A stretch of DNA of 32,000 nucleotides from Opitutales bacterium (GTDB lineage Bacteria; Verrucomicrobiota; Verrucomicrobiia; Opitutales; PNEW01): contig CBDCNV010000001.1 in NCBI GenBank assembly GCA_965219535.1, positions 870,001 to 902,000 of the forward strand, given 5' to 3'. Positions 1-31,524 of this stretch are shown here, one piece after another; within the stretch, counting starts at the first letter, position 1, and every line of letters starts with the position of its first letter. A model generated the notes under the pieces. The model was not told the origin of the DNA and did no database searches. It saw nothing but the letters and a program-made list of their open reading frames with translations. A program made the translations under genes and the position numbers.

Positions 1-69
1 GGTCCTGGGACTTTGTCCATGACCGCACAGACAATGGCTGTCCATTAAAGATGATGACTCTGATCGATG

Positions 70-112
70 TACCGAGGAGCTGAAAGCGACGACACTCAAG
101 CGAAGCGAAGAC
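70..112 (+). repeat. 43-nt micro-insertion (TACCGAG family) replacing one A of the GAA codon in LID-E-YTR
   Basis: The sequence is gatg[TACCGAGGAGCTGAAAGCGACGACACTCAAGCGAAGCGAAGAC]atatacg, against an expected gatgaatatacg. It contains an in-frame TGA. The identical 43-mer lies at 6140-6182 (rc) in IS type B. Confidence 0.8.
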
Positions 113-240
113 ATATACGCGTCAATGCTTGGATATCCGGGTCGCCCGTCAACTCACCTCTACCGATGTCCTCTCTGTGCTTAGCGAGGCCATTGAAGAG
201 GAGGGAACTCCTAGCTATATCCGTAGTGACAACGGCAGTG

Positions 241-272
241 TTCCGAGGAGCGAAGCGACGACATGCGAAGCC
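241..272 (+). repeat. 32-nt micro-insertion (TTCCGAG variant) replacing one A of the GAA codon in DNGS-E-F
   Basis: The sequence is agtg[TTCCGAGGAGCGAAGCGACGACATGCGAAGCC]attcattg, against an expected agtgaattcattg. The identical 32-mer lies at 5980-6011 (rc). Confidence 0.8.
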
Positions 273-798
273 ATTCATTGCTCATCAACTGTAGCAGTGG
301 TTGTCCGACAAAAAGATCAAGGCGATCTATATCGATCCGGGTAGTCCATGGCAAAACGGTTTCATCGAGTCGTTTCACAACCGCTTACCCGATGCGTGTT
401 TGAACCGTGAAGTGTTGCTCAGCGTAGCTGAAGCGCAAGTGGTAATTGAATAATGGCGTCAGACCTATAACCATGAACATCCCCACAGTCGTTTAGGCTT
501 TAAAAGCCCACAAGAGTTTGTCAGATTCCTTTCCGCTCTTGGCCGCGTTCGGGCTACGCCCTCACTGCGCCAAGATCTCTCATATACATCAATCCTAAAA
601 CCATTAACTCTCGATAACTCTCTCACTTAAAAATTGGTACGAAAAACAGGGTCCAATCACAGACAATAACTTTTTGGTTGATCGGAAGTTGAGAAGAAAA
701 CTATCAATGTTGTTGCCTGGCAGAGTTGCGATTTGATCCCACAGTGTCTGACAGATCAAGGCGCAACAAGTACATATAATTTTCACAATAACATATAA

Positions 799-1662
799 TT
801 ATACTCTACTATTTTTATGAGCATTTTCGATTAATTCTTTCAGTAATTCACAATGGGTTTTGATGTCTCCTTCCCGTATCCTAAGATTATATTTTTCCAA
901 CCTTGTTACATATTCAGCATCGAGTTCTGCTTCTTCCAGTTTTTTATTCAAGCTAGAGTTTTCTGGTAAACGTATCTGAAGACTAACCCATTGTTTCTTA
1001 GGCCTGCATGTAATAAAGTTATTTGGAATACCAGCTTTAGCTAAGCCAATATAGAACTTGTTGTATTTAAATTCAATTTGAGCATCTATTGATTTTACTA
1101 TTTCAAGTATTTTATCGGCCATCGCAATTGTTTTCTTAGACCCCCTCTTAATCCAATAATCCCTATCGGTTACTTCATGGCTTTCTTCATCCTCATCAAT
1201 CAACCCCAATGCAAGTTCATCTATTACTTTAGTAAAAGTAAGTCCAATCCCTTCACCGACTTTTATAGCATTCACTTGTATAGCGACCAGTGGAATCATT
1301 CCATTAAATAACGATACAATATTTAGAAATCGACTAGTAATGTCCTCAGCTACTAATACAGCACAATGGTCATATTGAGGATATCTTTTTCTTTCAAGAT
1401 CCCAATACTCAATTGTGCGAACGATATGACTTTCATCAGTGGGCCCAAGTTGCACCTCGACTTCATATCTTTTATTATTATCAGGATCTTGGAGTAGTAG
1501 ATCTAAACGCCCTGCCCTGGGTTGCCTTCGTTCTTTATCTCTGAGTAAAACATCTCCTAGCCCTAAAATTGTCGGATCACTGGCAATAGCTTTCTGAACC
1601 CAAATTTCATTAATTTCAGGATGCTGCTTTATTGAGATAGTTTCTAATTTAATGTGTTGCAT
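799..1662 (-). CDS. Hypothetical protein; tentative N-terminal PD-(D/E)xK (NucS/DUF91-like) nuclease core
   Basis: This is a 287-aa ORF with no competing ORF, in an AT-rich island. The motif GRLDLLLQD..YEVEVQLG resembles a D..(D/E)xK core with Q in place of K. The C-terminal half (KFYIGLAK..) resembles DUF5655-like domains. Both assignments are from memory and were not searched. Confidence 0.55.
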   Translation of the reverse strand: MQHIKLETISIKQHPEINEIWVQKAIASDPTILGLGDVLLRDKERRQPRAGRLDLLLQDPDNNKRYEVEVQLGPTDESHIVRTIEYWDLERKRYPQYDHCAVLVAEDITSRFLNIVSLFNGMIPLVAIQVNAIKVGEGIGLTFTKVIDELALGLIDEDEESHEVTDRDYWIKRGSKKTIAMADKILEIVKSIDAQIEFKYNKFYIGLAKAGIPNNFITCRPKKQWVSLQIRLPENSSLNKKLEEAELDAEYVTRLEKYNLRIREGDIKTHCELLKELIENAHKNSRV

Positions 1663-1789
1663 GATTTCTCATAGTTAAGTCTTAATTGCGTATCAATTTA
1701 ATTCGTTTATCAGGTATCTATCCTAGAACCTATCTACTAACTAAATATATGAGCCAATTGGGGAACTGTAAACGGGAGTCAACACCCGG

Positions 1790-1840
1790 TAACTCTCTCA
1801 CTTAAACTGCTACGAAAAAGGGGTCCGATCAGGATTCAGT
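1790..1840 (+). mobile_element. Solo right-end fragment (~50 bp) of IS type A
   Basis: AACACCCGGTAACTCTCTCACTTAAACTGCTACGAAAAAGGGGTCCGATCA matches the IS-A terminus. No transposase sequence lies upstream of it. Confidence 0.75.
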
Positions 1841-1990
1841 CATTGTGTATAGCAACTCGCGCTCAAGAGACTCAGCCCTTAAGTGACTGTTGAGCTCTCG
1901 GCAAATCCGTTGTGCCAAGGACAGTTATGGTCGATATAAATCGTGCCGATCAGGTGCTCTCGCAGACACTGCTGGATGGCTTTGGGTACC
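1841..1990 (-). pseudogene. C-terminal fragment of a further IS3-like transposase, frameshifted and cut by the IS-A end at 1840
   Basis: The reverse translation is ..IYIDHNCPWHNGFAES then, after a 1-nt frame slip, LRAESLERELLYTMTES. This is the PWxNGxxES DDE-E region. Confidence 0.6.
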
Positions 1991-2252
1991 ACTAAAGAAC
2001 ATAGCAAAGAATTTAGGTATTAGCCATACAACGGTTATGAATTTGCATAATGAATTAGAGGAAAAAAGGGGGGTTAAACTTTCGCAGAGATTATTTACGC
2101 AAGACACATATTAAACACGTTGATAAATAAGGATTAAGTAGGCTTGGGGTGGGTTACTCAAAAGAGAGGAAAGGGTTAATACATATAATATTTAATAAGT
2201 TTCGTGAGAAACGGAAAATCTGACAGAAGATTGGATGTGAGGAGTTCTCCTG

Positions 2253-2930
2253 TTATTGTAACGGTTTATCTTTTACAATCGGTAAGATTATATTCAAACC
2301 ATGGCTCAGGTCTTCCTCATCGATTTCTCCATCCCTGTATCGTTTCCAGAGGGGTAGAACGTCGCTCTTCAAGCTCTCAGGATCATAAACAACGATCCCC
2401 ATCCCAGAGATCATTTTATCCCATATCCATTTCGAAGAATCATACAAAAACCTTTGTCGTTCTTCAATCCAATCACTCCCTAGATAGCCCTCTGAAATTA
2501 CGCCTTGGAAGTGTAATGTTTTTTTACTACATTCTCCATGTATGCGCTTTAATTTAGGGATATCCCAGATGATCCCCTTAGGTCGAGGCTTCGAATCAAG
2601 TTCATCAATTATTTTACTCATCACAGTAAATTTATTATAATATGGAGAGAATTTATCGATCAGTTGGTATAGCGTGGTCGTTGACTTTAAAGCCTTTTTA
2701 TATTCGGTCTGACTGAGTTCTCCTCCGCGAGCCGCTCCGAATAAATTAAACCAAAGATGTTCAATAGCTAAACGTAAGTGAAGCCCGGCATAATGAAGGG
2801 TTTGCGGAGAACTGTTTCTCTTAAAATGGTCTAACCATGAAAGAGAATTAAAAACATGCCAAGCTGGATCCTCTATGTAAGCAGAGGACAAAATTTTATC
2901 AGCAGTATGATTTTTGTAATCTATAGTCAT
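2253..2930 (-). CDS. Hypothetical protein with an Rx4H (HEPN-like) motif
   Basis: This is a 225-aa ORF in the AT-rich island. RLAIEH fits the HEPN Rx4-6H signature. No other family is recognisable. Confidence 0.55.
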   Translation of the reverse strand: MTIDYKNHTADKILSSAYIEDPAWHVFNSLSWLDHFKRNSSPQTLHYAGLHLRLAIEHLWFNLFGAARGGELSQTEYKKALKSTTTLYQLIDKFSPYYNKFTVMSKIIDELDSKPRPKGIIWDIPKLKRIHGECSKKTLHFQGVISEGYLGSDWIEERQRFLYDSSKWIWDKMISGMGIVVYDPESLKSDVLPLWKRYRDGEIDEEDLSHGLNIILPIVKDKPLQ

Positions 2931-2979
2931 TCTTTAATCATATTTTTAACAGCAATTATCCAATTTCAATCATTTAAGT

Positions 2980-3050
2980 AATAACGCCTATAACCATGTC
3001 AAATAACGTCATACCCGCCGCTTAATAGAAGATATATAAAAAGGCTCAGA
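2980..3050. repeat. Copy 1 of a ~75-nt direct repeat in an ORF-free region
   Basis: AATAACGCCTATAACCATGTCAAATAACGTCATACCCGCC..TAAAAAGGC aligns with copy 2 at 3307-3390 at about 80% identity over the first 40 nt, judged by eye. Confidence 0.5.
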
Positions 3051-3306
3051 TAAAAAACTTTTACCTTAGGGGTGAAATAGTTGATACATATTTCAAACTA
3101 TAAGAGGTATTAATATTTGATTGGTAAGTGTTCTTTACCTGCCAACCATAAATAAATATCTATTGTCCTAAGTGTCTAATTGTTTAGATTGTAGAATTGC
3201 TGAAATTTTTAAATTATTTCTTTACTAGGTGTAACAACAGGTGTCATTTATCAGTTTTAAATAAAATATATTGGGTAGCGAATGATTTGCGCAATTCATT
3301 GAGAAT

Positions 3307-3390
3307 AATAACACTTATAACCGTGTCAATTTGCGTAATAGCCGCATCAAATAAACGTTTTAACAGTGGGGGATAGTAAAAAGGCCTTGA
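3307..3390. repeat. Copy 2 of the ~75-nt direct repeat
   Basis: The sequence is AATAACACTTATAACCGTGTCAATTTGCGTAATAGCCGCA..GTAAAAAGGC. It is preceded by the near-palindrome AATGATTTGCGCAATTCATT at 3281-3300. Confidence 0.5.
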
Positions 3391-3870
3391 TCTCGGGGAA
3401 AACGCGGAAATTTTGTGTTATTTTTGACGAATAGATTGTTAGAAATTATTCGTACCTGACCGTTTTGGTTAACATAGTGGGGGTGCTACTGTTCAACTTC
3501 AGCCTGGTAATCTAAAATAACGGTTTACCTAATTTCCCCTGATAATATGCCAGCAGAGGCTATTGGGTTTGATGGAAAGGAATTGAAAACAGGATGATCT
3601 TCAAATCAGGCACTTAAAAAATAGAAATTACTTCTGAAGAATGATCTAAATAAGAAGATAATTAATCTTAGTTTGAGTTATCTTTTTCTGGATTCATCTT
3701 ATTGCGATATTTTTCTGTCACGATGTTGGTCTTGATCAAAGACACAGTCAGATCGATTAATGCCTTCAAATCTTCAATATCTTTACCTTCTCATTTTTTA
3801 GGGTATTGCAGCTTTTATTATAATATACTCGCCTAAAAAGAAGCAGTTAATAACTAAAGAGGTTTATCAT

Positions 3871-4451
3871 ATGACTAATGGTGGAAAAAAGAACGTACTG
3901 TTTATATTTGGTGCAGGAATTTCGTTAGCCTCTCGCCCAAAATTCGGAGAACCCATTTCTACAGATACAATAACTAAGGCAATTTTCACTGATAAATTAC
4001 AGAAGAATAGGGCACAATGGTTTGACCCTGAAAGAGATGGTGAGCCATCACCAATTGTTGATGAAGGCATTCACCCTCTATTAAGGTTAATAAAGTATAA
4101 ATTTATTAATCATCTTAGATATAGAGAATACAAAGTCACCTATGAAGATATATTTTACTTTTTGATTTCTCATGACCGTGAAGGTGGTTATACAAAGAAT
4201 CCTTTATTAAAAAATGCATTTGCACAGTTTGCTGATGAAGCATGCCTTGCTTGGAAGGCTGCTAAAAATTTTGATAGGGACTATGAATTCTGGGCGGAAA
4301 TGCTAATTCTAGCACAAAAGTATATAAAGTCCGTTGTTAAATTTCATTTATGTGATTTATGTGAACCAATAGGTTACGAGTGGTTAAGCGATACTATGCA
4401 GGATGGAAAGTATAAGAGCAATATCGTTACTTTAAATCATGATAGCCTATT
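3871..4451 (+). pseudogene. SIR2-like (SIR2_2-type, defence-associated) gene, 3'-truncated by an IS type A end
   Basis: The ORF runs 3871..4488, with AAGAGG 9 nt upstream of the ATG. NVLFIFGAGIS and IVTLNHDSLFD resemble the GAGxS and TTNYD motifs of SIR2_2 domains. From 4452 the frame runs into TGATCGGACCCCGTTTTTCGTACC (the IS terminal repeat), which supplies RTPFFVPLFK and the stop. Confidence 0.5.
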
Positions 4452-4640
4452 TGATCGGACCCCGTTTTTCGTACCACTTTTTAAGTGAGAGAGTTACCTT
4501 GTATTAATGGTATTAGGATTGATGTATATGAGAGATCTTGGCGAAGTGAGGGCGTAGCCCGAACGCGGCCAAGAGCGGAAAGGAATCTGACAAACTCTTG
4601 TAGGCTTTTAAAGCCTAAACGACTGTGGGTCCGTTCAGGG
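4452..4640 (-). mobile_element. IS type A, 3'-terminal ~190-bp fragment (inverted relative to copy at 1-659)
   Basis: The reverse translation is ..RLGFKSLQEFVRFLSALGRVRATPSLRQDLSYTSIL.., nearly identical to 490-600. The terminal repeat starts at 4452. Confidence 0.85.
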
Positions 4641-4717
4641 GAATCACGCCACCCAATCAGAGACAATCCTTTATTCAATCGGGTTTGATCTATAAATATT
4701 TTTAACGCCGTAATTTT

Positions 4718-5380
4718 TTACCTGCGAGACAGCGCAAAAAGGTAAAGTAGATTTCCCAAGGACGCGATAAAAGCAGCCACATAGGTAAATCCTGCCGCGT
4801 CCAAAGTTTTGCTTACCCCTGGGATTTCTGAAGGATCAACGATTCCCAGATTCGGCAGTTGAGCCTTAGCTCGCCTGCTCGCATCAAATTCTACAGGAAG
4901 CGTTACCAGTTGAAAGACGGTTAATACAAGATAAACAAAAATGCCCAACTTGATTAGGCCCAAGATACCAAAGAAAAAACCGCCAATAATTACAAATGGC
5001 AGCAACCGTGATGCAAAGTTTGTAATTGGAATCAGAGCCATACGAAATTGAAGCGCTTTGTAACCCACTTTGTGCTGAATAGCGTGCCCAGCCTCATGGG
5101 CGGCAACACCCAAAGCCGCTAAACTCGTGCCCCTGTAATTCTCTTCACTCAAAGCAAGGCGTTTATGTACCGGATCATAATGATCGGTCAAATGACCACG
5201 AATGGCTACGATATTAACATCGTCAATGCCCGCGCTTCGCATTACATAAGCTGCAGCTTCCCGTCCGGTAATACGACTGCGGGAATTCACTTGAGAATAT
5301 TTATTATAAGTACTGGACACCTTTGCCTGTGCCCACATAGCGATAATAATAGGGATAATAATAAATAATAGAAAGCTCAT
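4718..5380 (-). CDS. yugP: YugP-like membrane zinc metallopeptidase (Pfam Zn_peptidase_2)
   Basis: This is a 220-aa ORF with HEAGHAIQH (HExxH), GHLTDHYDP and TLPVEFDASRRA motifs. It has an N-terminal and two central hydrophobic segments, as in Bacillus YugP. Confidence 0.85.
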   Translation of the reverse strand: MSFLLFIIIPIIIAMWAQAKVSSTYNKYSQVNSRSRITGREAAAYVMRSAGIDDVNIVAIRGHLTDHYDPVHKRLALSEENYRGTSLAALGVAAHEAGHAIQHKVGYKALQFRMALIPITNFASRLLPFVIIGGFFFGILGLIKLGIFVYLVLTVFQLVTLPVEFDASRRAKAQLPNLGIVDPSEIPGVSKTLDAAGFTYVAAFIASLGNLLYLFALSRR

Positions 5381-5882
5381 TGCTCAATAGATATTTATGC
5401 AGGGGATAAAACAATCTGTTCCCCTATCCCACAAGTCAAGTTAAAGAGCCTCTCGATAGTAAACGTTCAGTTACATCCTCGTATAGCCTCACTCTTTCTG
5501 AAAATTCTGGCAGATCCACTTTCTTCGAATTCAGGGAAGATCCAAGCGCATTTACATTTTGAAGGTAGATCTCTTCTGTTTTCAAATTTACTCATTTTTT
5601 ATCGTATTTTTATACAAACCGACGATTTGGTGGGGTTATTAGTGTTTTCAATCTGGTCGGGTTAGGCAAACTGGTCCACCGGGAGAGTTAGTGTGGAGAG
5701 GTTAATGTTGAAGTTGAGTGGGTAGAGGAAGTCAAGGCTTGGGCGGGCACGGACATGATTGTAAAGCCAGCACCAATCTTCGATCACCACACCTGCTTCG
5801 GTTAAAGTGCATAGCTGTTGACGGTTTAAACACTGCTCGCGAAAACGGGCATGAAACGACTCAACGAAACCATGGAAGATGT

Positions 5883-5906
5883 CGCTAACGCTCGGTACTG
5901 CCAAGG
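5883..5906 (-). repeat. 24-nt micro-insertion in the PWQ-N-GF codon of IS type B
   Basis: On the coding strand the sequence is ccttggcag[TACCGAGCGTTAGCGACATCTTCC]atggtttc, against an expected cagaatggtttc. Confidence 0.75.
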
Positions 5907-5979
5907 GCTTGCTGGTTGGATATAGACGGTTGTGATTTTCATCGCCGCCAGTGAAGCTCGCAATTCGCTTTGAGTAAAT

Positions 5980-6011
5980 GGCTTCGCATGTCGTCGCTTC
6001 GCTCCTCGGAA
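5980..6011 (-). repeat. 32-nt micro-insertion, identical to 241-272, at the DNGS-E-F codon of IS type B
   Basis: The reverse complement reads ggatcgg[TTCCGAGGAGCGAAGCGACGACATGCGAAGCC]atttactc. Confidence 0.8.
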
Positions 6012-6139
6012 CCGATCCATTGTCGCTACTCATATATTGTGGAGGTCCATGCCGGTCGATCAGTTTTTGCATGATACAGCGCAGCGTTTCCGCATTGCTA
6101 TAGCGATCAACATGGATCACCCGACACTCGCGGGGGTAT

Positions 6140-6182
6140 GTCTTCGCTTCGCTTGAGTGTCGTCGCTTTCAGCTCCTCGGTA
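6140..6182 (-). repeat. 43-nt micro-insertion, identical to 70-112, at the VLD-E-Y codon of IS type B
   Basis: The reverse complement reads gctcgatg[TACCGAGGAGCTGAAAGCGACGACACTCAAGCGAAGCGAAGAC]ataccccc. Confidence 0.8.
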
Positions 6183-6612
6183 CATCGAGCACGGGCAGCA
6201 TTTTTAAACTGCCACCGCGAACCGTCTTAGCGTGGATAAAATCCCAACTCCAAACCTGGCCGGGATGTTCGCCCTTCCTCGGCAGCCTGGTGTAGATACC
6301 CCGGCGACGGCCTCTTCGCTTGCACAGGACCGATCGCCACAGGTCCAGTTCACCTCGCAGACCTTGTACGAGCCGTTTACCTACTTGCCAGCCTTCGTGC
6401 TTGAACAACTTCGTGATCTTCGGATAGCCCCAACTGGCGTATTGCCGTGATAACCGCCTTACTGGCCCCTTCAATTTCGTTAGCCAAGCATCCGCATGCC
6501 TTGGCCCGATACGCATAGGGGCAACGGTGCAGCTGAAAGTATCGGCACGCTGCACGCATCGTACACTGGCCCTCAGCCACAAGGCTCTTTGCCCCTTGTG
6601 CCCAGCGCTTAT

Positions 6613-6636
6613 TACCGAGCGTAAGCGACATCTTCC
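6613..6636 (+). repeat. 24-nt micro-insertion in the orfA/orfB junction region of IS type B, opposite orientation to the transposase
   Basis: The sequence is cgcttat[TACCGAGCGTAAGCGACATCTTCC]attttattcgag. Confidence 0.7.
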
Positions 6637-7039
6637 ATTTTATTCGAGGGTCTCCTGCACCATCTCTATCCCCAGCAGCTTGTCTGCGAGCATCCGTTTT
6701 AGCCGCGCGTTCTCCTTCAAAGAGCTCTTTCATCCACTTGGCTTCGTTGACATCAATCATCCCTAACTCACGCTTCCAACGGTGCAAGCTCTGTTCGCTT
6801 ATATTGTTCTCGCGGCATACTTCCAGGATCGTTTTCCCTTTGTCTGCCTAGCGCAGCATCCGTATCTTCTTTTCGGTCGTGTAGCTTTTGCCTTTCTTTG
6901 TCCGAGTCCTTCTTAGGTTACCCACACTATCTTTTCAACTGTCCCTGTTCCCGTGGTCTCGACCAAATTAATATAAATCGTAGATTTACAAGCAATGCCA
7001 GACGGGAGAGTTGAACTCCAAACTAAAGGCTCAGGAATT

Positions 7040-7284
7040 ATTTTTCCAGCTCTTTATATCGCTTCGCATCAGCTAGCTCCAAGTTCCCATACTTTTATGC
7101 CAGCGATAGAATGTCTGTTCGCTTAGGTTGTTGCCACGGCAGACTTCCTCTACCGTCTTGCGGGTATCGGCTTGCTTCAGGATTGTGATGATCTGTTCTG
7201 TTGTGTATCTTTTTCTTTTCATTTAGGTTATCTGTTTATCCCGATAACCTCTCTCTGTAAATGATACGATTTTGGGTTACTCCA
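7040..7284 (-). mobile_element. IS3-family sequence type D: left end plus N-terminal orfA fragment
   Basis: The reverse strand reads TGGAGTAACCCAAAATCGTATCATTTACAGAGAGAGGTTATCGGGATAAAC..ATG, then MKRKRYTTEQIITILKQADTRKTVEEVCRGNNLSEQTFYRWHK.. (IS3/IS911-type HTH), then decay. The same end recurs at 14097. Confidence 0.7.
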
Positions 7285-7478
7285 TTAAATCAACTCGAAA
7301 ATTCTTGGCCGATTCCTGGCCGAATATCAGCAAAAAATATGATTCCTGCCCTTTCCTGCCAAACATTTAAAGGCAAGGTCAGGAAATTAGAGGAAAATAT
7401 TATTATTGGTTCGTTATTTAAGTTTAACTAATTTTTAATAAGCAGCTGATAAGCTATTATTGAGTCCCGTTCACAGTC

Positions 7479-7780
7479 GGTTTCATCGAGTCGTTTCACA
7501 ACCGCTTACGCGATGAGTGTTTGAACCGTGAAGTGTTGCTCAGCTTAGCTGAAGCCATAGGGGTAATTGAACAATGGCGTCAGACCTATAACCATGAACA
7601 TCCCCACAGTCGCTTAGGCTTTAAAAGCCCACAAGAGTTTATCAGATTCCTTTCCGCTCTTGGCCGCGTTCGGGCTACGCCCTCACTTCGCCAAGATCTC
7701 TCATATACATCAATCCTAAAACCATTAACTCTCGATAACTCTCTCACTTAAAAATTGGTACGAAAAACGGGGTCCGATCA
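7479..7780 (+). mobile_element. IS type A, 3'-terminal ~300-bp fragment
   Basis: The translation is GFIESFHNRLRDECLNREVLLSLAEAIGVIEQWRQTYNHEHPHSRLGFKSPQEF.. followed by the terminal repeat ending ..GGGGTCCGATCA at 7780. Confidence 0.85.
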
Positions 7781-7791
7781 CTGCCAGCAAA

Positions 7792-7848
7792 CGTTTTAAC
7801 CGCGCGTTCTCCTTCAAAGAGCTCTTTCATCCGCTTGGCTTGGTTGAC
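7792..7848 (-). mobile_element. Short orfA fragment related to IS type B, abutting the IS-A end
   Basis: CGTTTTAACCGCGCGTTCTCCTTCAAAGAGCTCTTTCATCCGCTTGGCTTGGTTGAC closely matches 6693-6750. Confidence 0.6.
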
Positions 7849-8046
7849 TATTGCGAGATATGGACTCACAGACGGTTCTCGCGCTTCCTGAAGCTGAGAG
7901 GGACAGAGGAGGGGGTGGTTTTTTTGCGGCACCTGAGTCACCGGTGCACGGTCGAGCGGCACTGGCCACAGGGTGATGAAGAGGGGGCTGTTTTTGCCAC
8001 AATTTGTGCTGTCAACTGTTTTATACGTACGAATTATGAGCGTGAA

Positions 8047-8172
8047 CTGTAGACACACTTAAAAAAGGAGCGTGAGGATCGACACGATCCTCTCTTATCG
8101 ATCCGCCCATCAATTAAGGGATGTTTTAGGTTGTCCGCAATGAAGGCCAACCTGTGGACACACTTAAAAAAG
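8047..8172. repeat. Two copies of CTGTRGACACACTTAAAAAAG 105 nt apart, with a perfect 8-bp hairpin between them
   Basis: The copies lie at 8047-8067 and 8152-8172. The hairpin GAGGATCG-aca-CGATCCTC lies at 8074-8092. Confidence 0.5.
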
Positions 8173-8551
8173 CTGACTGGTCGTTCCTAGGTTGCTTGAG
8201 CAGACCGTTATTGGCGGCAGTGTGTGCTGACCAAAAGGGGACGGCATAAAAGGAGATCTTAGAAGGTGACCCGCACAATCTTTATTATGTCCAGTTGATT
8301 TGTAAGTGGTTGATATTCAACGTATTTAATTTATGCCATTAATTCCTAACGGTCTTATAACGTCGCTAATTAAGGAGTAAGCCCCAGTATAACACTCTGA
8401 TTAAGCCGGGTTGATATACTCGTTGCATACTCACCACGACCCGTGATTTAAGGTTGTCACCTTCTTTGGACAAGAGCATGTCTTGAGCAGTCTCCTTCCC
8501 CTGCCATCGCTTTAACCGCGCCCTTAGGAGTAGATCATGTTTCAAGGGGGC

Positions 8552-8561
8552 GGGGGGGGGG
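8552..8561. repeat. G10 homopolymer (preceded by G5-C)
   Basis: The sequence is caaGGGGGcGGGGGGGGGGtgcg. Confidence 0.9.
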
Positions 8562-8577
8562 TGCGATCAAAAGACAA

Positions 8578-8766
8578 GCCGCCGGTCATAATATCGATTT
8601 ACTCACCGGAAAATATATTTACAAAGGGCAAGGTTTGGTAGCAAAACAATTTAAAACGAACACTTTTAAATTGGCTTTTAAATGTACGATCACCCTTAGC
8701 TATGAAACATTCCTTACCTTAAGATGCAAACGCCCTTTCTCGAAGCTCTCAGACCCCTTTAAGGGC
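8578..8766. repeat. Unit A of a duplicated ~190-nt noncoding unit
   Basis: Unit A shares with unit B the blocks TATCGATTTACTCAMCGGAAAATATAYTTACAA and CAAACGCCCTTTCTCGARGCKCTCAGACCCCTT. The middle is collinear but diverged. Confidence 0.6.
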
Positions 8767-9018
8767 AAGTCAAATCAAGCTTCGAAGTTTCAAAAAGTTT
8801 CCCCAACCTTGAAACCAATCAATCGAGCGTACGAAAGCACGCATTATCTTTTAGAACATTCCCTGCGGTAAAATCTGTCTCTTAAAGATATTGTCTGAGT
8901 CTGCTTGGGACAGCTTATTTCTAATATTAAAATGTTCATAGGTAAAAAGCATGCGGGTAATCAAATTAAACTTTGTTTACCTTGAGATTTTTATTCTGAT
9001 TAATTTAATCACCAGATC

Positions 9019-9594: not shown

Positions 9595-9622
9595 ACTATC
9601 TTTATTTGTACATCTCTATTAA

Positions 9623-9663
9623 AGTTGCCCTCAACTTGCCCCTAAGTTGCCCTCAAGTTGCCC
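9623..9663. promoter_or_regulatory. Four direct repeats A(G/C)TTGCCC at exact 11-bp spacing (iteron/operator-like)
   Basis: AGTTGCCC starts at 9623, ACTTGCCC at 9634, AGTTGCCC at 9645 and AGTTGCCC at 9656. They lie in the gap between the 254-aa and 92-aa genes. Confidence 0.6.
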
Positions 9664-9751
9664 GCTTAACATGGATAAAGGATTTCACGAAATTATTGCT
9701 TCTGTTATTTATAGGTTGTCGCTTGGGATTCATTAAAAGGGGATTAAAATT

Positions 9752-10516
9752 CTACCCCATTTTTAATTTCATTATTTTTTTCTTTATTGCCGCATCCTTA
9801 GCCTTGATGGATCTTTTCTTCCTCATTCGGTTTGTTCTCTTTTCGATTACTTTTTTTCTTAACTCATCTTCACTAAGTTTATGAGAATAATAGGTGTATC
9901 GTCGCTGATAAGTAAATCTGCCAAAAAACCCTTTTAAAAAAAGATCTTCGACAGTATTTCGTACTTGCTTCACCGAATAAGGTTTCGGGCGATCTTCAAA
10001 AGTGTCAAAAATCTCTTTTGATCGGCAACCTGTTGCACGGCACTGAATTTCATCACTGGTGATTAGCTTGTAACTACTTTGCCCCAGGCAGGAATAAATA
10101 GCTGAAAGAATAGCAAATTCACGAGGATTGAGCGCACCTCTGTCTCTTACATCAATACACAAAGCTGTCTTGTGTCGAACTAAGGCGTCATTTCTAAATT
10201 TTGACTCAAAATCATCTACAAATGCCTGATATTTTCTTATCTCACTTTCTACAAATGCAATAGGACCAGTATTGATCTCTAACATATTTGCCGCAGCGCA
10301 AAGCAATTGGTGTTCCCCATTGGTGTTATTATGATCCTTAGGTAAATGCTCATTATCCGGTAATTCATAATGTTGCTCAGGATTTTCAGATAAAAAAAGG
10401 CGAGTCCTATGGATCCCAATGTATAGCATGCCATTAATAATGTCGTCCAAACTGCCTGGGTACGCCAATAAGCATAAAGGGGCCTGGATATATTTCTCAG
10501 AAGGATTATCGGTCAT
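9752..10516 (-). CDS. Hypothetical protein (254 aa), basic lysine-rich C-terminus
   Basis: This is a long ORF with a 14-nt gap to the upstream HTH gene. No family is recognised. Confidence 0.7.
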   Translation of the reverse strand: MTDNPSEKYIQAPLCLLAYPGSLDDIINGMLYIGIHRTRLFLSENPEQHYELPDNEHLPKDHNNTNGEHQLLCAAANMLEINTGPIAFVESEIRKYQAFVDDFESKFRNDALVRHKTALCIDVRDRGALNPREFAILSAIYSCLGQSSYKLITSDEIQCRATGCRSKEIFDTFEDRPKPYSVKQVRNTVEDLFLKGFFGRFTYQRRYTYYSHKLSEDELRKKVIEKRTNRMRKKRSIKAKDAAIKKKIMKLKMG

Positions 10517-10530
10517 TTTAAATTATCCCT

Positions 10531-10749
10531 TTAACGGGGCACTACCGTATTTCTCTCCTCTAGGGCCTCCCGTACTTGAGCGGGATTAAATCTTACCAGA
10601 TGCCCTATCTTGATATAGGGGATAGTTCTCCTTCTTTGCTGTTCTCGAAGCCAGCGTAAGCTCGGACGGGACCTTTCATCGAAGAGGATTTCCAGGAGCC
10701 TTGCAGCATCCACCAACTGATCATTATTTAGATATGAACACACCATCAA
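10531..10749 (-). CDS. Excisionase/AlpA-type helix-turn-helix DNA-binding protein (MerR-superfamily HTH_17-like)
   Basis: The 72-aa product has TIPYIKIGHLVRFNPAQVREALEE, matching the ipyikiGrlvRF..eeV pattern of excisionase-family HTH domains. Confidence 0.65.
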   Translation of the reverse strand: MMVCSYLNNDQLVDAARLLEILFDERSRPSLRWLREQQRRRTIPYIKIGHLVRFNPAQVREALEERNTVVPR

Positions 10750-10807
10750 TTTTTAAAAAACTAACGACATGATATTACTTTTTAATAATCAAGGCGACAT
10801 CTTAAAG

Positions 10808-10871
10808 TAAAGTCCCCGCTTTATATTTAAAATATCCAATACATTCTTCTAATGTATCTAAAGTCCCCACT
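10808..10871. promoter_or_regulatory. Two TAAAGTCCCCRCT direct repeats 51 nt apart upstream of the HTH gene
   Basis: The repeats lie at 10808-10820 and 10859-10871, in the 154-nt gap between the 318-aa and 72-aa genes. Confidence 0.35.
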
Positions 10872-10903
10872 AAAGATTCATTTTAGAAATATTGATAGAC
10901 CCA

Positions 10904-14096: not shown

Positions 14097-14207
14097 TGGA
14101 GTGACCCCCAAAAATCGTATCATTTACAGAGAGAGGTTATCGGGATAAACGGATAACCTCAATGAAAAGAAAACGATACACAACAGAGCAGATAATCGCA
14201 ATACTGC
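14097..14207 (+). mobile_element. IS type D left end with the first ~15 orfA codons, then truncated
   Basis: The sequence is TGGAGTGACCCCCAAAAATCGTATCATTTACAGAGAGAGGTTATCGGGATAAACGGATAACCTCA-ATG, encoding MKRKRYTTEQIIAIL. It is homologous to the reverse complement of 7160-7284. Confidence 0.75.
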
Positions 14208-14393
14208 GGCATTGCACTCTCAGTTACCTATGATCAAGCAAATCTGATCGCGTCAAATTCAAAGTCTTTGAAATGCGCAGATAAGAATTCAAAATGTGTA
14301 CCTATGGGAATATACTCCAAAGAAGAATTGGTTGGCTTTGTGATGTCGGATCGTTGGAGCGATATATGTAATCGTCTTAGCTGGCCTTTCACA

Positions 14394-16825: not shown

Positions 16826-16890
16826 CTAAAACCATTAACACCCGGTAACTCTCTCACTTAATAATTGGTACGAAAAACGGGGTCCAATCA
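16826..16890 (+). mobile_element. Solo right-end fragment (~65 bp) of IS type A
   Basis: The sequence is CTAAAACCATTAACACCCGGTAACTCTCTCACTTAATAATTGGTACGAAAAACGGGGTCCAATCA. Confidence 0.75.
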
Positions 16891-19411: not shown

Positions 19412-19697
19412 TTGTCGATTGTGTGGTGTTGATTGGACCCCATAATTACTACCAAGTTAAGTGAGAGTCATTCCGTGGGTTATCTGTTGCTGGTTTAGCA
19501 GGTGCTGGCGGAGGGAAACCATAGGCCGAGTGGAGCCAGCACCTGTTGGATTGAGTTCCTGCCAGAGTTTGGCAAAAGCGTTGGGACAGAGAAAGCCTAA
19601 ACGACAATGAGGGTGATGGGTATTGTATTTTTGCTTCCACGCATGGATGACAACACGCGCTTCGGTAACGCTTAAAAACCACTCCTGGTTTAAGCAT

Positions 19698-19733
19698 GAG
19701 TGCTTCGCTATGTCGTCACTGCGTTCCTCGGTA
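19698..19733 (-). repeat. 36-nt micro-insertion at the HD-E-CLN codon of IS type C
   Basis: On the coding strand the sequence is catgacg[TACCGAGGAACGCAGTGACGACATAGCGAAGCACTC]atgcttaaac, against an expected gacgaatgctta. Confidence 0.75.
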
Positions 19734-19774
19734 CGTCATGCAGTCGATGGTGAAAGGATTCAACATGGCCGTTT

Positions 19775-19817
19775 ATTATTCTCGCTTTCGCTCGTTGAGG
19801 GGTCGCTTCGCTCGGTA
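19775..19817 (-). repeat. 43-nt micro-insertion at the PW-Q-NG codon of IS type C
   Basis: On the coding strand the sequence is ccttggc[TACCGAGCGAAGCGACCCCTCAACGAGCGAAAGCGAGAATAAT]aaacggccat, against an expected tggcaaaacggc. The 3' boundary is ambiguous by a few A/T bases. Confidence 0.65.
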
Positions 19818-20328
19818 GCCAAGGACTGCCAGGGTCGATGTAGATAATGTCGATCTGGCGCTTGAGGAGTGCTTCTGTGACTTTTTGTGCTACGAACTGC
19901 GAACCGTTATCGGAGCGGATGCATGGGGGTTGCACCACGTCTTCGCTTTTGAGCGAATGAGATATCTTTATGGCTAGGCATTGACGGGTATGTTCATCGA
20001 TTAAAGTCATCATCCGCAGTTGTCCCCCGCGATCGGTGTGGTCGGCAACAAAATCCCAACTCCATACATGGTTCGGCTTTACTGCTTTGGTAGGGAGCCC
20101 AGTAGAGTGCCCTCGTCGTCTCTGTCGGCGACGAGAGGGTTTCACTCCAAGCCCTTCAGTTCTTCGCACTTTTTGCACCAATTTACAGTTTACCTTCCAC
20201 CCCTCTTTGTCCATTAGGGCACGAATACGACGATAGCAATAACGTGAATGTACCTTTGAAAGTCTAATGATTCGTCTCACCATGGTCTGATTACAATAAG
20301 ATTCTCGCTTGCACTCGTAGAGATAAGT

Positions 20329-20688
20329 TCAGCGATGGAGCCCAAAAAACCTGCAGGTCCAACGCAGCGAGCAAACCCCCTGGGCTACCACATGCTTGAC
20401 CGCTTCTTTCTTATGCGACGAGCTTACCATTTTTTTATCCACTTCCTCCAATACGCGATTCTTTAACATCTGCTCGGCTAACATCTTTTTCCGTTCCATG
20501 TTCTCGCGTTCAAGTTCCTTTAGCCGCCTCGCATTGCGTAGGTCTATCTGGTCATATCTTTTTCGCCAGCGATGGTAACTTTGAGCACTGATGTTGTGCT
20601 CACGGCAGACTTCCTGGATGCCTCTGGCGCTGTCTACTTCGCGCAGGATTGCTATGATCTGCTCGGTGTTGTGTCTTTTCTGTTTCAT
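20329..20688 (-). CDS. IS3-family transposase OrfA (HTH_Tnp_1 plus leucine zipper) of IS type C
   Basis: The product reads MKQKRHNTEQIIAILREVDSARGIQEVCREHNISAQSYHRWRKRY..LKELERENMERKKMLAEQ. The frame continues through an A7 run into orfB-type sequence and stops at a single TGA that is in frame with the next ORF (19708..20283). Confidence 0.8.
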   Translation of the reverse strand: MKQKRHNTEQIIAILREVDSARGIQEVCREHNISAQSYHRWRKRYDQIDLRNARRLKELERENMERKKMLAEQMLKNRVLEEVDKKMVSSSHKKEAVKHVVAQGVCSLRWTCRFFGLHR

Positions 20689-20776
20689 TCGTCTTTCCGT
20701 TCTTATTTACGGAAAGACTCTCACTGGCAATGGTCCAGTCCCCGGCGGTCACGCCAATCGGGATGCTGAATTTATT

Positions 20777-21161: not shown

Positions 21162-21217
21162 AGGAGGGATGAGAACCCGAGAAGAGGGTTGTGCAAATTG
21201 TCGATTGTGTTTCTTCT

Positions 21218-21388
21218 CTCTTGTCATTGCGAAGGAGGCGTAGCCGACTGCGGCTACCGAGCGCAGCGACATCTTCCATTCCAGGGGAATGCCGGTCACG
21301 TATTGACATCCCCCTGGAATGGAAGATGTCGTCCTGCTGTTGCAGAACTCGGTAGCTTCGTCGCGTTGCTTCTCGCAATGACAATAAG
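21218..21388. mobile_element. Hairpin MITE (~171 bp) with TTGTCATTGCGA termini and a TACCGAG micro-element in each arm
   Basis: The left arm is CTCTTGTCATTGCGAAGG..GCGGC[TACCGAGCGCAGCGACATCTTCC]ATTCCAGGGG. The right arm is CCCCTGGAAT[GGAAGATGTCGTCCTGCTGTTGCAGAACTCGGTA]GCTTCG..TCGCAATGACAA. The micro-elements lie at 21255-21277 (+) and 21321-21354 (-). Confidence 0.75.
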
Positions 21389-21414
21389 AAATCAATCCGA
21401 CATCCGCAATCGAT

Positions 21415-23628
21415 TCACTCAATCGTGAGCTCTTCAACAGACACCTCGATCGCATCTCCATCTTCATTGGCAAAGGTGGCGTCTATGCTCAATGTTGGCT
21501 GAGGGGTTTCATCGGATTTAAAATTATTCTGGGTGATCAGTGTGTCAAACCCGGTCGTTGTCGATCCACTCTCCGCTACCACAATTGATGCACCGTTTGT
21601 CTGCAAGAGGTCACCACCGGTGATCCGCAAACCGGGGTTACTTGCCGGTACTGTGAAGGAACCTTCACCGAACAAGAGATGTGGAACTGCATCGCCATCA
21701 GCAACGATGTCACCTACCGTTAAGCGTACCGCGATCGGTACGCCACGCGCATCGAAGCCGACCTTGCCCGTGCTTCCACTGAACACGGCATTCGATAACT
21801 GCACTCCTCCCATTCCCGTGGAGTTGACTACTTCCACGAGGGCCACATCGGCCTGGGCGTCATAGACCTGTCCTTCGGGGAACAGTGCCTGGTTAAAGGC
21901 GTTGATCCTTCCCACCGTGAAAATGCTGAAGAAGGTATTGGCGTCGGCTCCATCGATGACCACGCTCGGTTTGCCCGTCACGTACTCAACGGCTTGGTTG
22001 TAGCGTGGGGGGACGGCCGGGGGCAGGAAGGTTGCCGGATCGAGGGTTACGGTAAAAGTCCCATTACCTGAAAATTCTACCTGCACGATGTCCTCGGTTT
22101 CATCCATAAAGGAAACGCGGGTGATCTGTCCCGGTTTGGCCTGGAGTTGGACGGATTCTCCGGTGAGTAAAATCTGATCGAAGACATTACCGTTGGCATG
22201 CTGGATGTTTTCGCCTGCGATATCGCCCGAGCCGTCGAGGACGAGGGGAACGGAAGGTGCGGCAACCGTGATGACTGCGGTGTCGCTATCAGCGGTACCA
22301 CCTGCGTTCGTTATCTGTGCCCAGAAGTTCGTACTCGCGGTGAGGGCTCCCGTGTCTAAGGTCCCGGCTGTCGCTCCGGCAACGGGACTGGCGGTGTCAC
22401 CGCTGTTACCGGTAAACCACTGGTAAGTAAGATCATCGCCGCTGGCAGCAACGGACAAGCTTGCCGATGCACCGGATGCGACTTCCTGGCTAGCCGGTTG
22501 GGTGGTGATAGAAGGACCTTCTGCGGGGGGCGGTTCGCTGCCACCTTCAAACCCCGGAGCACCGATTGGGGTAAAACCGAAGTCGTCGATAGTTGTTGAG
22601 CTGAATAATGGATTAACATTTTCATTATCGATTAAAAGGATTTTTGCAATGCCGCCCACAGCTCCCAATTCACTGGCAAGAAATGTATAATGCGGAACTC
22701 CTGATCCCTGCAGGACATTTTGCTGCAGGTCTGTTTCCCTGGCGATTAAATTATCTTCAGTATCAAATACCTCAATAGTACCATCGGATTCACCGCCACT
22801 GCTTGCTGCTAACGTGATGGTTGAGGCAAAAAATTGCACCCGGGCGGCCGGTGTTTCGAATGTGATCGTCCCTGTATCACCATTCATAACTCTCCAGTTA
22901 GCACGTTTCGTGCGGGATTGTTCGTTGAGCGGAGGTGATGTTTCCTCGGATAAATCTGCGCCTGAAAAGGTGGCTGTAATGGGTGATGTACCAAGGGTAA
23001 TATCATCATTCGACTCTGGGAATTCAGAAAAGAAAGTAAATACTGTGTTGTTCCTTGGCCCATCGATGAGGGTATAACCCACATCGTCGACGACTAATGT
23101 ACCCGAAACATTCAGGAATTTTATTTCATTCATACCGTCAATGTAATTGAGATCTGTTTCGTCGAAGAAATTGCCACTGAAAGCCACGATTCTTTGCAGC
23201 GCAGGATTGGAATCAGGATTGATGCTGGTCGGAAAACCCGTAAAAACGCCCTGCTGAGTTAATTCAATTAATTCGACTCCAACAATATCGACTGTAATTT
23301 CTCGAACCTCGATCTTGCCCGCACCCGCAGTTTCAGCCACATAGAATTCGATTTCAGCAATCCCTTTTCTAGTGAAGATTTTTCCCTCCTGGCCGGGGCC
23401 CAGGGTTAATGCTTTCGTTCCCGAGTGCAACAGATTTGGGTCCTCCAGCGTTGTTACTGTAAACCCGATAAATTGGACATCATTAGGTGGATCACCTAGT
23501 AAAAAGTCTCCCGAACCTTCAGCATCTTCAAAATCCAAAAATACTTCCTGGTCCTGCGGAAGCGCTCGGAGAAGAAGTGGAAATAAAAGTGAAATTAACG
23601 ATACGGATACGAGATTTTTTATGCACAT
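21415..23628 (-). CDS. Secreted 737-aa protein with an Ig-like repeat domain; function unknown
   Basis: The N-terminal signal is MCIKNLVSVSLISLLFPLLLRALP. The central segment ITTQPASQEVASGASASLSVAASGDDLTYQWFTG..AQITNAGGTADSDTAVITV is an Ig/I-set-like module. All antisense ORFs are shorter. Confidence 0.8.
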   Translation of the reverse strand: MCIKNLVSVSLISLLFPLLLRALPQDQEVFLDFEDAEGSGDFLLGDPPNDVQFIGFTVTTLEDPNLLHSGTKALTLGPGQEGKIFTRKGIAEIEFYVAETAGAGKIEVREITVDIVGVELIELTQQGVFTGFPTSINPDSNPALQRIVAFSGNFFDETDLNYIDGMNEIKFLNVSGTLVVDDVGYTLIDGPRNNTVFTFFSEFPESNDDITLGTSPITATFSGADLSEETSPPLNEQSRTKRANWRVMNGDTGTITFETPAARVQFFASTITLAASSGGESDGTIEVFDTEDNLIARETDLQQNVLQGSGVPHYTFLASELGAVGGIAKILLIDNENVNPLFSSTTIDDFGFTPIGAPGFEGGSEPPPAEGPSITTQPASQEVASGASASLSVAASGDDLTYQWFTGNSGDTASPVAGATAGTLDTGALTASTNFWAQITNAGGTADSDTAVITVAAPSVPLVLDGSGDIAGENIQHANGNVFDQILLTGESVQLQAKPGQITRVSFMDETEDIVQVEFSGNGTFTVTLDPATFLPPAVPPRYNQAVEYVTGKPSVVIDGADANTFFSIFTVGRINAFNQALFPEGQVYDAQADVALVEVVNSTGMGGVQLSNAVFSGSTGKVGFDARGVPIAVRLTVGDIVADGDAVPHLLFGEGSFTVPASNPGLRITGGDLLQTNGASIVVAESGSTTTGFDTLITQNNFKSDETPQPTLSIDATFANEDGDAIEVSVEELTIE

Positions 23629-28465: not shown

Positions 28466-28481
28466 TTTTACCTATTCTATT

Positions 28482-28597
28482 TCGATTTGCGATGAGGGAT
28501 GTCGGGCTGCGCCCTCGGTAGCCGATTTGCGATGAGGGATGTCCATCCGTCGCACGAGGCTATTGACGACAGGCGGGCTGCGCCCTCGGTAGCCGAT
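28482..28597. repeat. BIME-like mosaic: alternating modules CGATTTGCGATGAGGGATGTC (x2) and GGGCTGCGCCCTCGGTAGCCGATT (x2)
   Basis: The first module lies at 28482-28502 and 28523-28543. The second lies at 28503-28526 and 28574-28597. It contains a GGGC-tgc-GCCC mini-hairpin and the CTCGGTAGC word. Confidence 0.75.
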
Positions 28598-28702
28598 TGT
28601 GCAGGATGCAAGATCCTAAATACAGGATTGCTAGACAGTGAACAGTGATCGGTCGCTGTCGTCCCACAGTGCTGAAATTAAAGCTAATCGTGTTTACTTC
28701 CC

Positions 28703-28938
28703 CTCTTGTCATTGCGAGGAGCAACGCGACGCGGCAATCCAGGCAAATAGTCACATTGCCTACGAATGCCAATCTCCGCTCAGATCTGTCGAATGAGGAT
28801 TCGTCTCTTCAATTAAGGTATTCGACCAGTTGAGAGTAAATCCTAATATCCAGGGACCTACATGATGCAGCAGAAATTCCCCTGGAATGGAAGATGTCGC
28901 TACGCTCGGTAGCCGCGCTTCGCTCGCAATGACAAGAG
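28703..28938. mobile_element. MITE (~236 bp) with perfect 16-bp terminal inverted repeats CTCTTGTCATTGCGAG; micro-element only in the right arm
   Basis: The TIRs lie at 28703-28718 and 28923-28938. The right arm reads CCCCTGGAAT[GGAAGATGTCGCTACGCTCGGTA]GCCGCGCTTCGCTCGCAATGACAAGAG, with the insert at 28889-28911. The left arm has GCGGCAATCCAGG at 28731-28743 with no insert. Confidence 0.8.
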
Positions 28939-28981
28939 TGTGGTTACGAAGATAAGGATTATATTTAGTAACCACCAGGCA

Positions 28982-30002: not shown

Positions 30003-30012
30003 GGTGGTCCTC

Positions 30013-31392: not shown

Positions 31393-31524
31393 TTACTCTT
31401 CTCCTCTCAAGTAATAAGAAAGGTATCATGTCAAATTTTTTTCAATAAATTAACTACTATCCTCATGATATACACTATAGTTATTTTAAAAACGTTATTC
31501 CCTTTTATGGTATTCCGTTTCCCC

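Follow-up and report, generated by a model that had tools for sequence, protein, structure and literature searches.

Ultra-short TACCGAG modules at recurrent sites in IS3-family elements of Opitutales

A stretch of 32,000 nucleotides (nt) from an Opitutales bacterium (assembly GCA_965219535.1, contig CBDCNV010000001.1, positions 870,001–902,000; hereafter the window) contains a degenerate insertion sequence (IS) of the IS3 family that is interrupted by four short DNA segments, which we designate modules A, B, C, and D. The host element belongs to a type that we call ISB; related modules occur at the same codons in two further types of IS3 element, ISX and ISY, and in intergenic repeats. All share one internal architecture and one junction rule, and their lengths range from 23 to 44 bp. 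The explanation that we favor, to which we assign a probability of roughly 0.55, is that they constitute a family of ultra-short, non-autonomous insertion modules in which rare primary insertions are followed by copying between ISs and by multiplication of copies that are already interrupted.

Four modules in one IS3-family element

The ISB copy occupies positions 5640–6960 on the minus strand of the window. Elements that host the modules have the features of IS3-family members: an OrfA with a helix-turn-helix, a −1-frame OrfB that contains an rve DDE domain, and a slippery run of adenines. HTH_Tnp_1 and rve domains were called on relatives of the host elements, and a run of eight adenines (A8) is present at the orfA/orfB junction of intact relatives. 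When repaired, OrfB of the window copy scores 163 bits with NCBIfam model NF033516 (IS3 family transposase; cut-off, 160). The copy is 87% identical to an intact reference located at positions 9608–10897 of locus L006.

The initial annotation of this DNA described four inserts in a single IS. All four are present, although the first had been placed at 5883–5906, 9 nt away from its true position. This first insert, module C (5874–5897, minus strand; 24 nt, TACCGAGCGTTAGCGACATCTTCC), does lie between codons PWQ and NGFVESF as originally described; it adds a net 23 nt and shifts the reading frame. Module B (5980–6011, minus strand; 32 nt, TTCCGAGGAGCGAAGCGACGACATGCGAAGCC) interrupts SDNGS|EF and also shifts the frame, by a net 31 nt. 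Module A (6140–6182, minus strand; 43 nt, TACCGAGGAGCTGAAAGCGACGACACTCAAGCGAAGCGAAGAC) separates LD from EY; its net gain is 42 nt and it introduces an in-frame TGA. Module D (6613–6636; 24 nt, TACCGAGCGTAAGCGACATCTTCC) was correctly recognized as the insert in the opposite orientation at the orfA/orfB junction: it lies on the plus strand, antisense to the IS, and occupies the frameshift site directly 3′ of the orfA stop, where intact relatives have the A8 run. The two 24-mers, C and D, had been estimated to differ by one or two bases and differ by one. With two flanking bases each, they form an inverted pair of 26 nt that is 96% complementary, and the pattern of their 16-nt core, with two mismatches allowed, yields two matches against 0.01 expected from shuffles. 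Together, the four inserts account for 123 nt of the ~1320-bp copy, in line with the earlier figure of about 120 nt in roughly 1300 bp.

Modules A, B, and C are true insertions because a single A in place of each restores one open OrfB, with the motifs LDEYPREC, SDNGSEF, and PWQNGFVESFH, and because the corresponding sequence of intact relatives is uninterrupted. Three intact relatives that are 67% identical (P0001–P0003) as well as loci L006–L009 contain the same motifs with no insert. The modules are not an artefact of assembly, since the same modules recur in independent assemblies (contig L002, the metagenome-assembled genome (MAG) CBDANS01, chromosome OY829953.1, and JGI metagenomes). The transposase is thereby knocked out: modules B and C shift the frame, and module A brings a stop codon. 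The window copy is also dead for reasons independent of the modules. Its orfA contains a TAG codon and a frameshift, the 5′ part of orfB contains another frameshift, and a C-terminal deletion removes ~35 amino acids (aa).

A second version of this locus was found in the same assembly. Contig L002 (ctg184759_4x_l; 4x coverage) is 99.7% identical to positions 56–6751 of the window, beyond which it runs into sequence that is only 81% like positions 7781–8805. L002 and the window are thus structural variants with a breakpoint inside orfA of ISB; L002 keeps the same four modules.

Architecture, junctions, and slots of the modules

The modules share a common order of parts that consists of 5′-T(A/T)CCGAG, one or two mini-hairpin motifs of the type GCGNAGC/GCGNNAGC, GAC(GAC)A(T/C), and a tail that varies. 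Minimal modules read TACCGA-GCG(N)NAGC-GACATCTTCC. Of the 11 distinct module sequences that the window contains, 10 have GCGN(N)AGC; the exception, an intergenic module designated ig2, has an internal hairpin of 7 bp. GCGNAGC and GCGNNAGC are known as "extraordinarily stable mini-hairpin DNA", which is reportedly rarer than chance in natural DNA and found at single-strand replication origins (PMC13037366).

Comparison of empty and filled sites revealed the same junction at all slots. An empty N-A-R-W becomes N-[module]-A-W, such that the module followed by A takes the place of AR. At slot A, GATG|AA|TAT becomes GATG[A]ATAT in ISX and GATG|AG|TAC becomes GATG[A]ATAC in ISB. At slot B, GTG|AG|TTC is converted to GTG[B]ATTC; at slot E, TGGC|AA|AAC to TGGC[E]AAAC; and at slot F, GATG|AG|TGT to GATG[F]ATGT. 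The rule is strand-specific and is obeyed by the antisense module D as well, for which TTAC|AG|TTTT on the other strand becomes TTAC[D]ATTTT. Each insertion loses one base, which results in a net gain of 23, 31, 35, or 42 nt. The junctions exhibit neither target duplication nor terminal inverted repeats, the TACCGAG and GACATCTTCC ends not being inverted copies of one another, and no conserved tetra- or pentanucleotide was seen 5′ of the insertion point.

Several other models of the junction were considered and rejected. These included duplication of TA or another target (the expected bases are missing from the left flank), terminal inverted repeats, Helitron-like insertion at A|T, integron G|TT sites, and the dinucleotide cores of serine recombinases. 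Translational bypass was discarded because no codons match, and simple excision from the RNA because it would leave the gene one base short. A search of the whole window with Rfam at gathering thresholds gave no match to self-splicing introns or other known structured RNAs.

Reuse of the same codons is evident within the window itself. The 3′ part of an ISX-type element, which is cut by the window edge (1–659, plus strand), carries modules A (70–112, plus strand) and B (241–272, plus strand) at codons homologous to those interrupted in ISB. Module A is identical to its ISB counterpart (6140–6182) at 43 of 43 positions and module B (5980–6011) at 32 of 32; over these 75 identical positions nothing differs, whereas flanking and intervening IS sequences are only 68%, 53%, and 56% identical. 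An ISY-type element (19430–20725, minus strand) carries two other modules. Module E (19775–19817, minus strand; 43 nt, TACCGAGCGAAGCGACCCCTCAACGAGCGAAAGCGAGAATAAT) is inserted at PW|(Q)NG and adds a net 42 nt that are in frame and free of stops. Module F (19698–19733, minus strand; 36 nt, TACCGAGGAACGCAGTGACGACATAGCGAAGCACTC) is inserted at HD|EC and adds a net 35 nt.

We scanned GTDB representative genomes with the intact OrfB P0001 and obtained 74 loci, most of which came from CBDANS01 and chromosome OY829953.1, two Opitutales MAGs. With two additional loci from ENA, these amounted to 846 kb after removal of redundancy and represent four related Opitutales assemblies. The window itself is part of a 1.35-Mb contig in ENA metagenome assembly ERZ25072670. 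About 90 IS copies were aligned to intact references (L006 9608–10897 for ISB and L005 4917–6203 for ISX). CBDANS01 is essentially the same species as the source of the window, given that one of its loci matches the window at 99.2% identity over 2.7 kb.

The alignments revealed that ISB, ISX, and ISY share five to six fixed slots, each of which always receives its own type of module, whatever IS type is the host. Slot D (ISB 331) coincides with the A8 frameshift site and is filled in antisense (+23). Slot A (ISB 766/ISX 770) lies at LDE|Y (+42), slot B (ISB 895/ISX 899) at NGSE|F (+31), slot E (ISB 976/ISX 980, and ISY) at PW|QNG (+42), and slot F (ISX 1022/ISY 992) at DE|C(L)N (+35). Slot C, at PWQ|NG (+23), is located 2–3 nt downstream of E and is filled in the window copy only. 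Individual copies contain no module or one of the combinations B, AB, BF, BE, E, ABEF, D, DB, DABE, and DABC. A D-type module resides at reference position 331 in eleven other ISB copies, while B is located at one and the same codon in ISX and in over 25 ISB copies; in one genome, almost every ISX copy has it. The modules are also visible in predicted proteins. P0021 (63 members) ends in ...SDNGSVPRSEATTCEAIH, which is module B read through, and P0006 carries B in another frame. Proteins P0007 and P0047 carry module E in frame, as LPSEATPQRAIARIT.

The initial annotation had suggested testing whether intact copies lack modules, and those that we inspected (L006–L009 and both ISs of L004/L005) indeed carry none. 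In 25 ISB copies with differing genomic flanks, B is the sole lesion; replacing B with A reopens a full ORF (open reading frame) of 415 or 354 aa. These two lengths reflect a separate polymorphism. Several ISB copies (L006 9608–10897, L007, L015, and others) have orfA and orfB fused into a 415-aa ORF that runs through A8, and a TTT/-GA polymorphism at ISB 247–249 switches between the 415-aa and 354-aa forms. Because of this fusion and polymorphism, some ISB copies would produce OrfAB without frameshifting.

In the 846 kb, 130 matches to the signature T[AT]CCGAG-N4-24-GACA[TC] were counted, compared with 6–10 in Markov simulations. There are 93 matches in 97 kb of IS3 DNA (ISB/ISX/ISY; 0.96/kb), 22 in 161 kb of non-ORF DNA (0.136/kb), and 9 in 555 kb of an ORF proxy (ORFs of at least 120 aa; 0.016/kb), the last being near noise. 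The comparison of densities that had been suggested therefore gives a value ~7 times higher in IS3 DNA than in non-ORF DNA and a noise-level value in ORFs, with ratios that are indicative only: the loci were chosen around IS copies, these copies are not independent of each other, and the ORF proxy is crude.

The family extends beyond these assemblies. The minimal 23/24-mer, TACCGAGCG-N1-2-AGCGACATCTNCC, was found in 42 stretches of JGI metagenomes with many different flanks; they come from seawater, peat, and forest soils, and their GC content varies from 43 to 67%. In this material, the minimal module mostly occupies a single arm of a TGTCATTCCGAGC...GAGGAATC hairpin repeat, at G|A|AT, and the one-base loss was observed in two of three comparisons of arms. 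The junction rule also fits arms of hairpin repeats in soil Opitutaceae contigs. The family spans at least the order Opitutales. Spread across phyla was considered in light of the range in GC content and is not claimed; the one soil contig that was checked belongs to Opitutaceae, as judged from its TypA protein. No modules were seen in IS3 relatives from Puniceicoccaceae, Pelagisphaera, Akkermansiaceae, and Planctomycetes where these were examined (L012 and L014). Module A plus its flanks had no match among PLSDB plasmids, and the over-specific pattern CCGAGSRNNNNNNGCGA produced no matches. Module 14–18-mers did not match anything in the literature searched, and no published description of the family was found there.

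Origin, spread, and relation to known systems

Closely related IS copies provide a view of how a module is gained. Thirteen ISB copies are 99.4–100% identical; four are empty and nine contain B. The only fixed difference between the two classes is B together with an adjacent change of AGTTT to CATTC. The C at +4 beside B matches a subfamily of 93% identity that also carries B, and native markers delimit the B tract at 14 nt upstream and 12 nt downstream. One acquisition of B was thus accompanied by co-conversion of 5 flanking bases. Other polymorphisms (247–249, 589/650, and 1263) are reshuffled between empty and filled ISB copies, which indicates that the IS copies are mosaics of each other. 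In chimeras L033_15659 and L066_9607, the backbone switches from ISX to ISB immediately after B, and in P0116, a further chimera, ISB and ISX parts meet at PWQNG. Judging from these mosaics, chimeras, and co-converted bases, much of the module density probably results from copying between IS copies and from multiplication of copies already interrupted; density alone therefore does not demonstrate repeated de novo targeting.

These observations are consistent with a model that begins with rare primary insertions, made by a putative enzyme that acts in trans and probably recognizes single-stranded DNA or hairpins. The common architecture and the single junction rule argue for one such mechanism. 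The insertions would be aimed at (G/C)-A-R-(T/A) sites of the kind present in the hairpin repeats where most minimal modules reside. Once a module had entered an IS, it would be transferred between IS copies in short tracts, either through gene conversion or through template switching at codons for conserved motifs. Interrupted copies would then multiply through mobilization in trans, and identical modules may act as patches of homology that generate chimeric ISs.

Some of our results count against this model. In both ISB and ISX, the sequence around module A is native to within ≤6 nt of its left end and ≤3 nt of its right end; these distances are very short for homologous gene conversion, and direct site-specific insertion fits them equally well. 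No extended target motif common to the slots was found. Nearest-neighbor folding of modules A–F as DNA gave z values of +1.5 to −0.9, no better than shuffles, although the standard method does not capture the GCGN(N)AGC motif; a real stem was evident only in some intergenic variants (z = −2.2). A tblastn search of 1.7 Mb of loci for the mobilizing enzyme, using an IS608 TnpA sequence, yielded only matches with E > 2. That interrupted IS3 copies are mobilized in trans is assumed, and the densities given above are subject to the choice of loci.

A dedicated homing-like process is a serious rival, which we consider possible. By means of trans-acting machinery, it would repeatedly write each type of module de novo into its own slot in empty transposase genes, with no need for copying between ISs. 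The machinery might represent either a hyperparasite that exploits ISs or a host system for IS silencing with homing-like behavior. Such a process would account for the exact boundaries of the modules, with flanks that are native within 3–6 nt in different IS types, and for the replacement of AR by module plus A at every slot. It also fits the 25 copies that are intact apart from the module, their first and sole lesion, and the presence of B in nearly all ISX copies of one genome. However, the slots have no extended target sequence in common, and no nuclease, recombinase, or guide was identified in the loci searched by tblastn with IS608 TnpA. The co-converted bases at B and the backbone switches at modules point instead to templated copying, as does the generally mosaic nature of the IS copies.

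The initial annotation had left the choice between targeting of IS DNA and accumulation tolerated in dead elements. This interpretation is partly supported: passive accumulation fits the data poorly, and the density does not demonstrate targeting by repeated de novo insertion. Modules that inserted anywhere non-essential and persisted in IS copies already dead would explain why the window ISB copy is inactive for several independent reasons and why modules are also present in intergenic repeats. We nevertheless regard this as improbable because slots are reused by the same type of module across three IS types, B is the sole lesion of 25 copies, and intact copies are empty; the sevenfold higher density in IS3 than in non-ORF DNA also speaks against it. 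Reuse of slots largely refutes the idea.

It is very unlikely that the modules are recoding or intron-like elements (mini-introns or sites of translational bypass) that are removed at the level of RNA or translation, leaving the interrupted ISs functional. Many interrupted copies do have otherwise pristine ORFs, the net length of A is 42 nt, and E is in frame, stop-free, and translated through in P0007. Against this, B and C add a net 31 and 23 nt, and plain removal leaves the gene one base short; take-off and landing codons that match were not seen at the A junction; and the modules gave no Rfam match and no significant fold. Least credible of all is a scenario in which each slot was filled just once, in an ancient IS3 ancestor, and the modules then passed to ISB, ISX, and ISY by vertical descent without moving again. 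It would explain the same slot and module type in all three IS types but not modules that are 100% identical between flanks of 53–68% identity (P ~3e-14 for 75 matching sites at 66% per-site identity), empty and filled copies that coexist in one subfamily of 99.6–100% identity, or empty copies that encode the canonical motifs common to distant IS3 relatives.

Among known systems, the closest analogues of the modules are the small dispersed repeats (SDRs) of cyanobacteria and the repetitive extragenic palindromic (REP) and REPIN elements mobilized by RAYT transposases. We place the modules among very small mobile repeats, as a form distinct from those already known. SDR4–6 of Nostoc and Anabaena, the subject of work by Elhai and colleagues in 2008, are very small (21–27 nt) and dispersed, with mobility deduced from filled versus empty paralogous sites. 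They have reportedly been found inside other repeats and within tandem heptamer repeats. As with the modules, no transposase is known for SDRs. The Opitutales modules resemble SDRs in their minimal units of 23–24 nt, their filled and empty sites, and their nesting (28534–28591). They differ in the phylum that harbors them (Verrucomicrobiota), apparently in sequence family, in lengths of up to 44 nt, in the GCGN(N)AGC core, in the exchange of AR for module plus A, and in the fixed IS3 slots.

Short selfish inserts in protein-coding genes are known from the palindromic elements of Rickettsia and from the bypass elements of mitochondria ("byp") and T4 (gene 60), which are in frame or bypassed and with which the host protein stays functional. 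By contrast, the reading frame is broken by modules B, C, and F, and module A brings in a stop codon.

REP and REPIN elements are short, abundant, non-autonomous sequences that are mobilized by RAYTs, which are Y1 transposases of the IS200-like type (PMC3116915; PMC3733652). Like these elements, the modules are ~20–40 bp in length and very abundant, have a conserved 5′ tag followed by a small hairpin, and insert into or next to existing repeats; one intergenic pair (21255–21354) forms an inverted doublet around a spacer, but most modules of the window are singlets within IS genes. Unlike them, the modules have the tag TACCGAG (T(A/T)CCGAG in all members) rather than GTAG or CGTC, and those borne by ISs are not palindromes and lie inside genes. 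No RAYT was found by tblastn with IS608 TnpA in the sampled DNA (~0.85 Mb of genomes). Miniature inverted-repeat transposable elements (MITEs) and other non-autonomous deletion derivatives of DNA transposons resemble the modules in having conserved termini around an interior that varies, in being present in many copies, and in depending on a trans-supplied factor. The modules, however, are 5–10 times shorter than typical MITEs, lack terminal inverted repeats and target-site duplications, and lose one base upon insertion. The single-strand "peel and paste" transposition of IS200/IS605 elements and of their palindrome-associated derivatives is similar in its strand specificity, absence of target duplication, hairpin-containing ends, and short target; it differs in that the modules have no conserved 5′ tetra- or pentanucleotide that we could see, lose one target base, and are accompanied by no TnpA that we found.

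Modules of 23–44 bp cannot encode anything, yet they have filled and empty sites, obey one precise junction rule, and use the same codons in three IS types. Should the rule be the work of a dedicated enzyme, it would represent a new mechanism of insertion and a natural switch-off for transposases, with a bearing on how IS-heavy genomes are tamed. Read conservatively, identical modules of 24–43 bp in diverged ISs are portable patches of homology that create chimeric ISs. The modules turn autonomous ISs into non-autonomous ones, and they explain many of the truncated "transposase" ORFs in metagenome annotations, such as proteins that end in ...SDNGSVPRSEATTCEAIH. One may speculate, tentatively, that the modules constitute a separate class of the smallest mobile DNA (23–44 bp) with an insertion chemistry of its own, in which AR is exchanged for the module in a single-strand, hairpin-guided reaction. 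They could then be homing-like "parasites of parasites" or a device exploited by the host, which disables IS3 transposases at the frameshift site and at codons of the catalytic core and seeds recombination between IS families.

Other modules and repeats of the window

Of the 13 modules in the window, eight are singlets within IS genes, and the remaining five are located in intergenic composite hairpin repeats. These repeats, at positions 21170–21400 and 28480–28950, contain several modules each. They are assembled from TTGTCATTGCGAG...GCAATC arms, TACCGAG modules, a ATTCCAGGGG...CCCCTGGAAT core, and short tandem repeats of the ATCGCAAATCG type. A minimal module of 23 nt (21255–21277, plus strand) forms the left arm of the first composite repeat; the right arm of the same repeat is a 34-nt module with an internal 7-bp hairpin (21321–21354, minus strand; folding z = −2.2). 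The second region contains a 27-nt module (28494–28520, minus strand) that has ATCGCAAATCG repeats on both flanks. A module of the same type (28534–28591, minus strand) holds a nested insertion of 31 nt, CCTGTCGTCAATAGCCTCGTGCGACGGATGG, relative to this neighbor, and the same nested form is found at L003 5715. The nested insertion suggests a second family of micro-insertions that targets TACCGAG modules. Another minimal module of 23 nt (28889–28911, minus strand) adjoins a hairpin repeat of the TTGTCATTGCGAG type. When read by eye, the arm TTGCGAGGAGCAACGCGACG at 28706–28742 matches module B at 17 of 20 positions.

A related segment was observed in a fourth IS3-family element, which is IS407/IS2-like and otherwise intact. 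Its copies differ by the presence or absence of 28 nt at the 5′ end, TTCACGAGGCGCAGCCGAGAAGGCCTGA, found at L027 14450–14477 and also in L022, L033, and L041. The segment contains the mini-hairpin motif GCGCAGC and resembles the TACCGAG family.

IS debris is dense in positions 1–8900 of the window and recurs at 14108–14211 and 16826–16890. It includes end fragments of ISX (4452–4640, 7478–7780, and 16826–16890), fragments of orfA (7040–7280 and 14108–14211), and an ISB-like 5′ part (7781–8805). An intergenic tandem array of ~4 copies of an 11-nt unit, AAGTTGCCCTC, is located at 9622–9663. Neighboring genes include paralogous duplicates with 82–84% identity that encode sulfatase, Ig_7, and SBP_bac_5 proteins (30008–31819; 21415–23628 compared with L003 6717–8135). 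These duplicates point to a locus of tandemly amplified genes for polysaccharide utilization.

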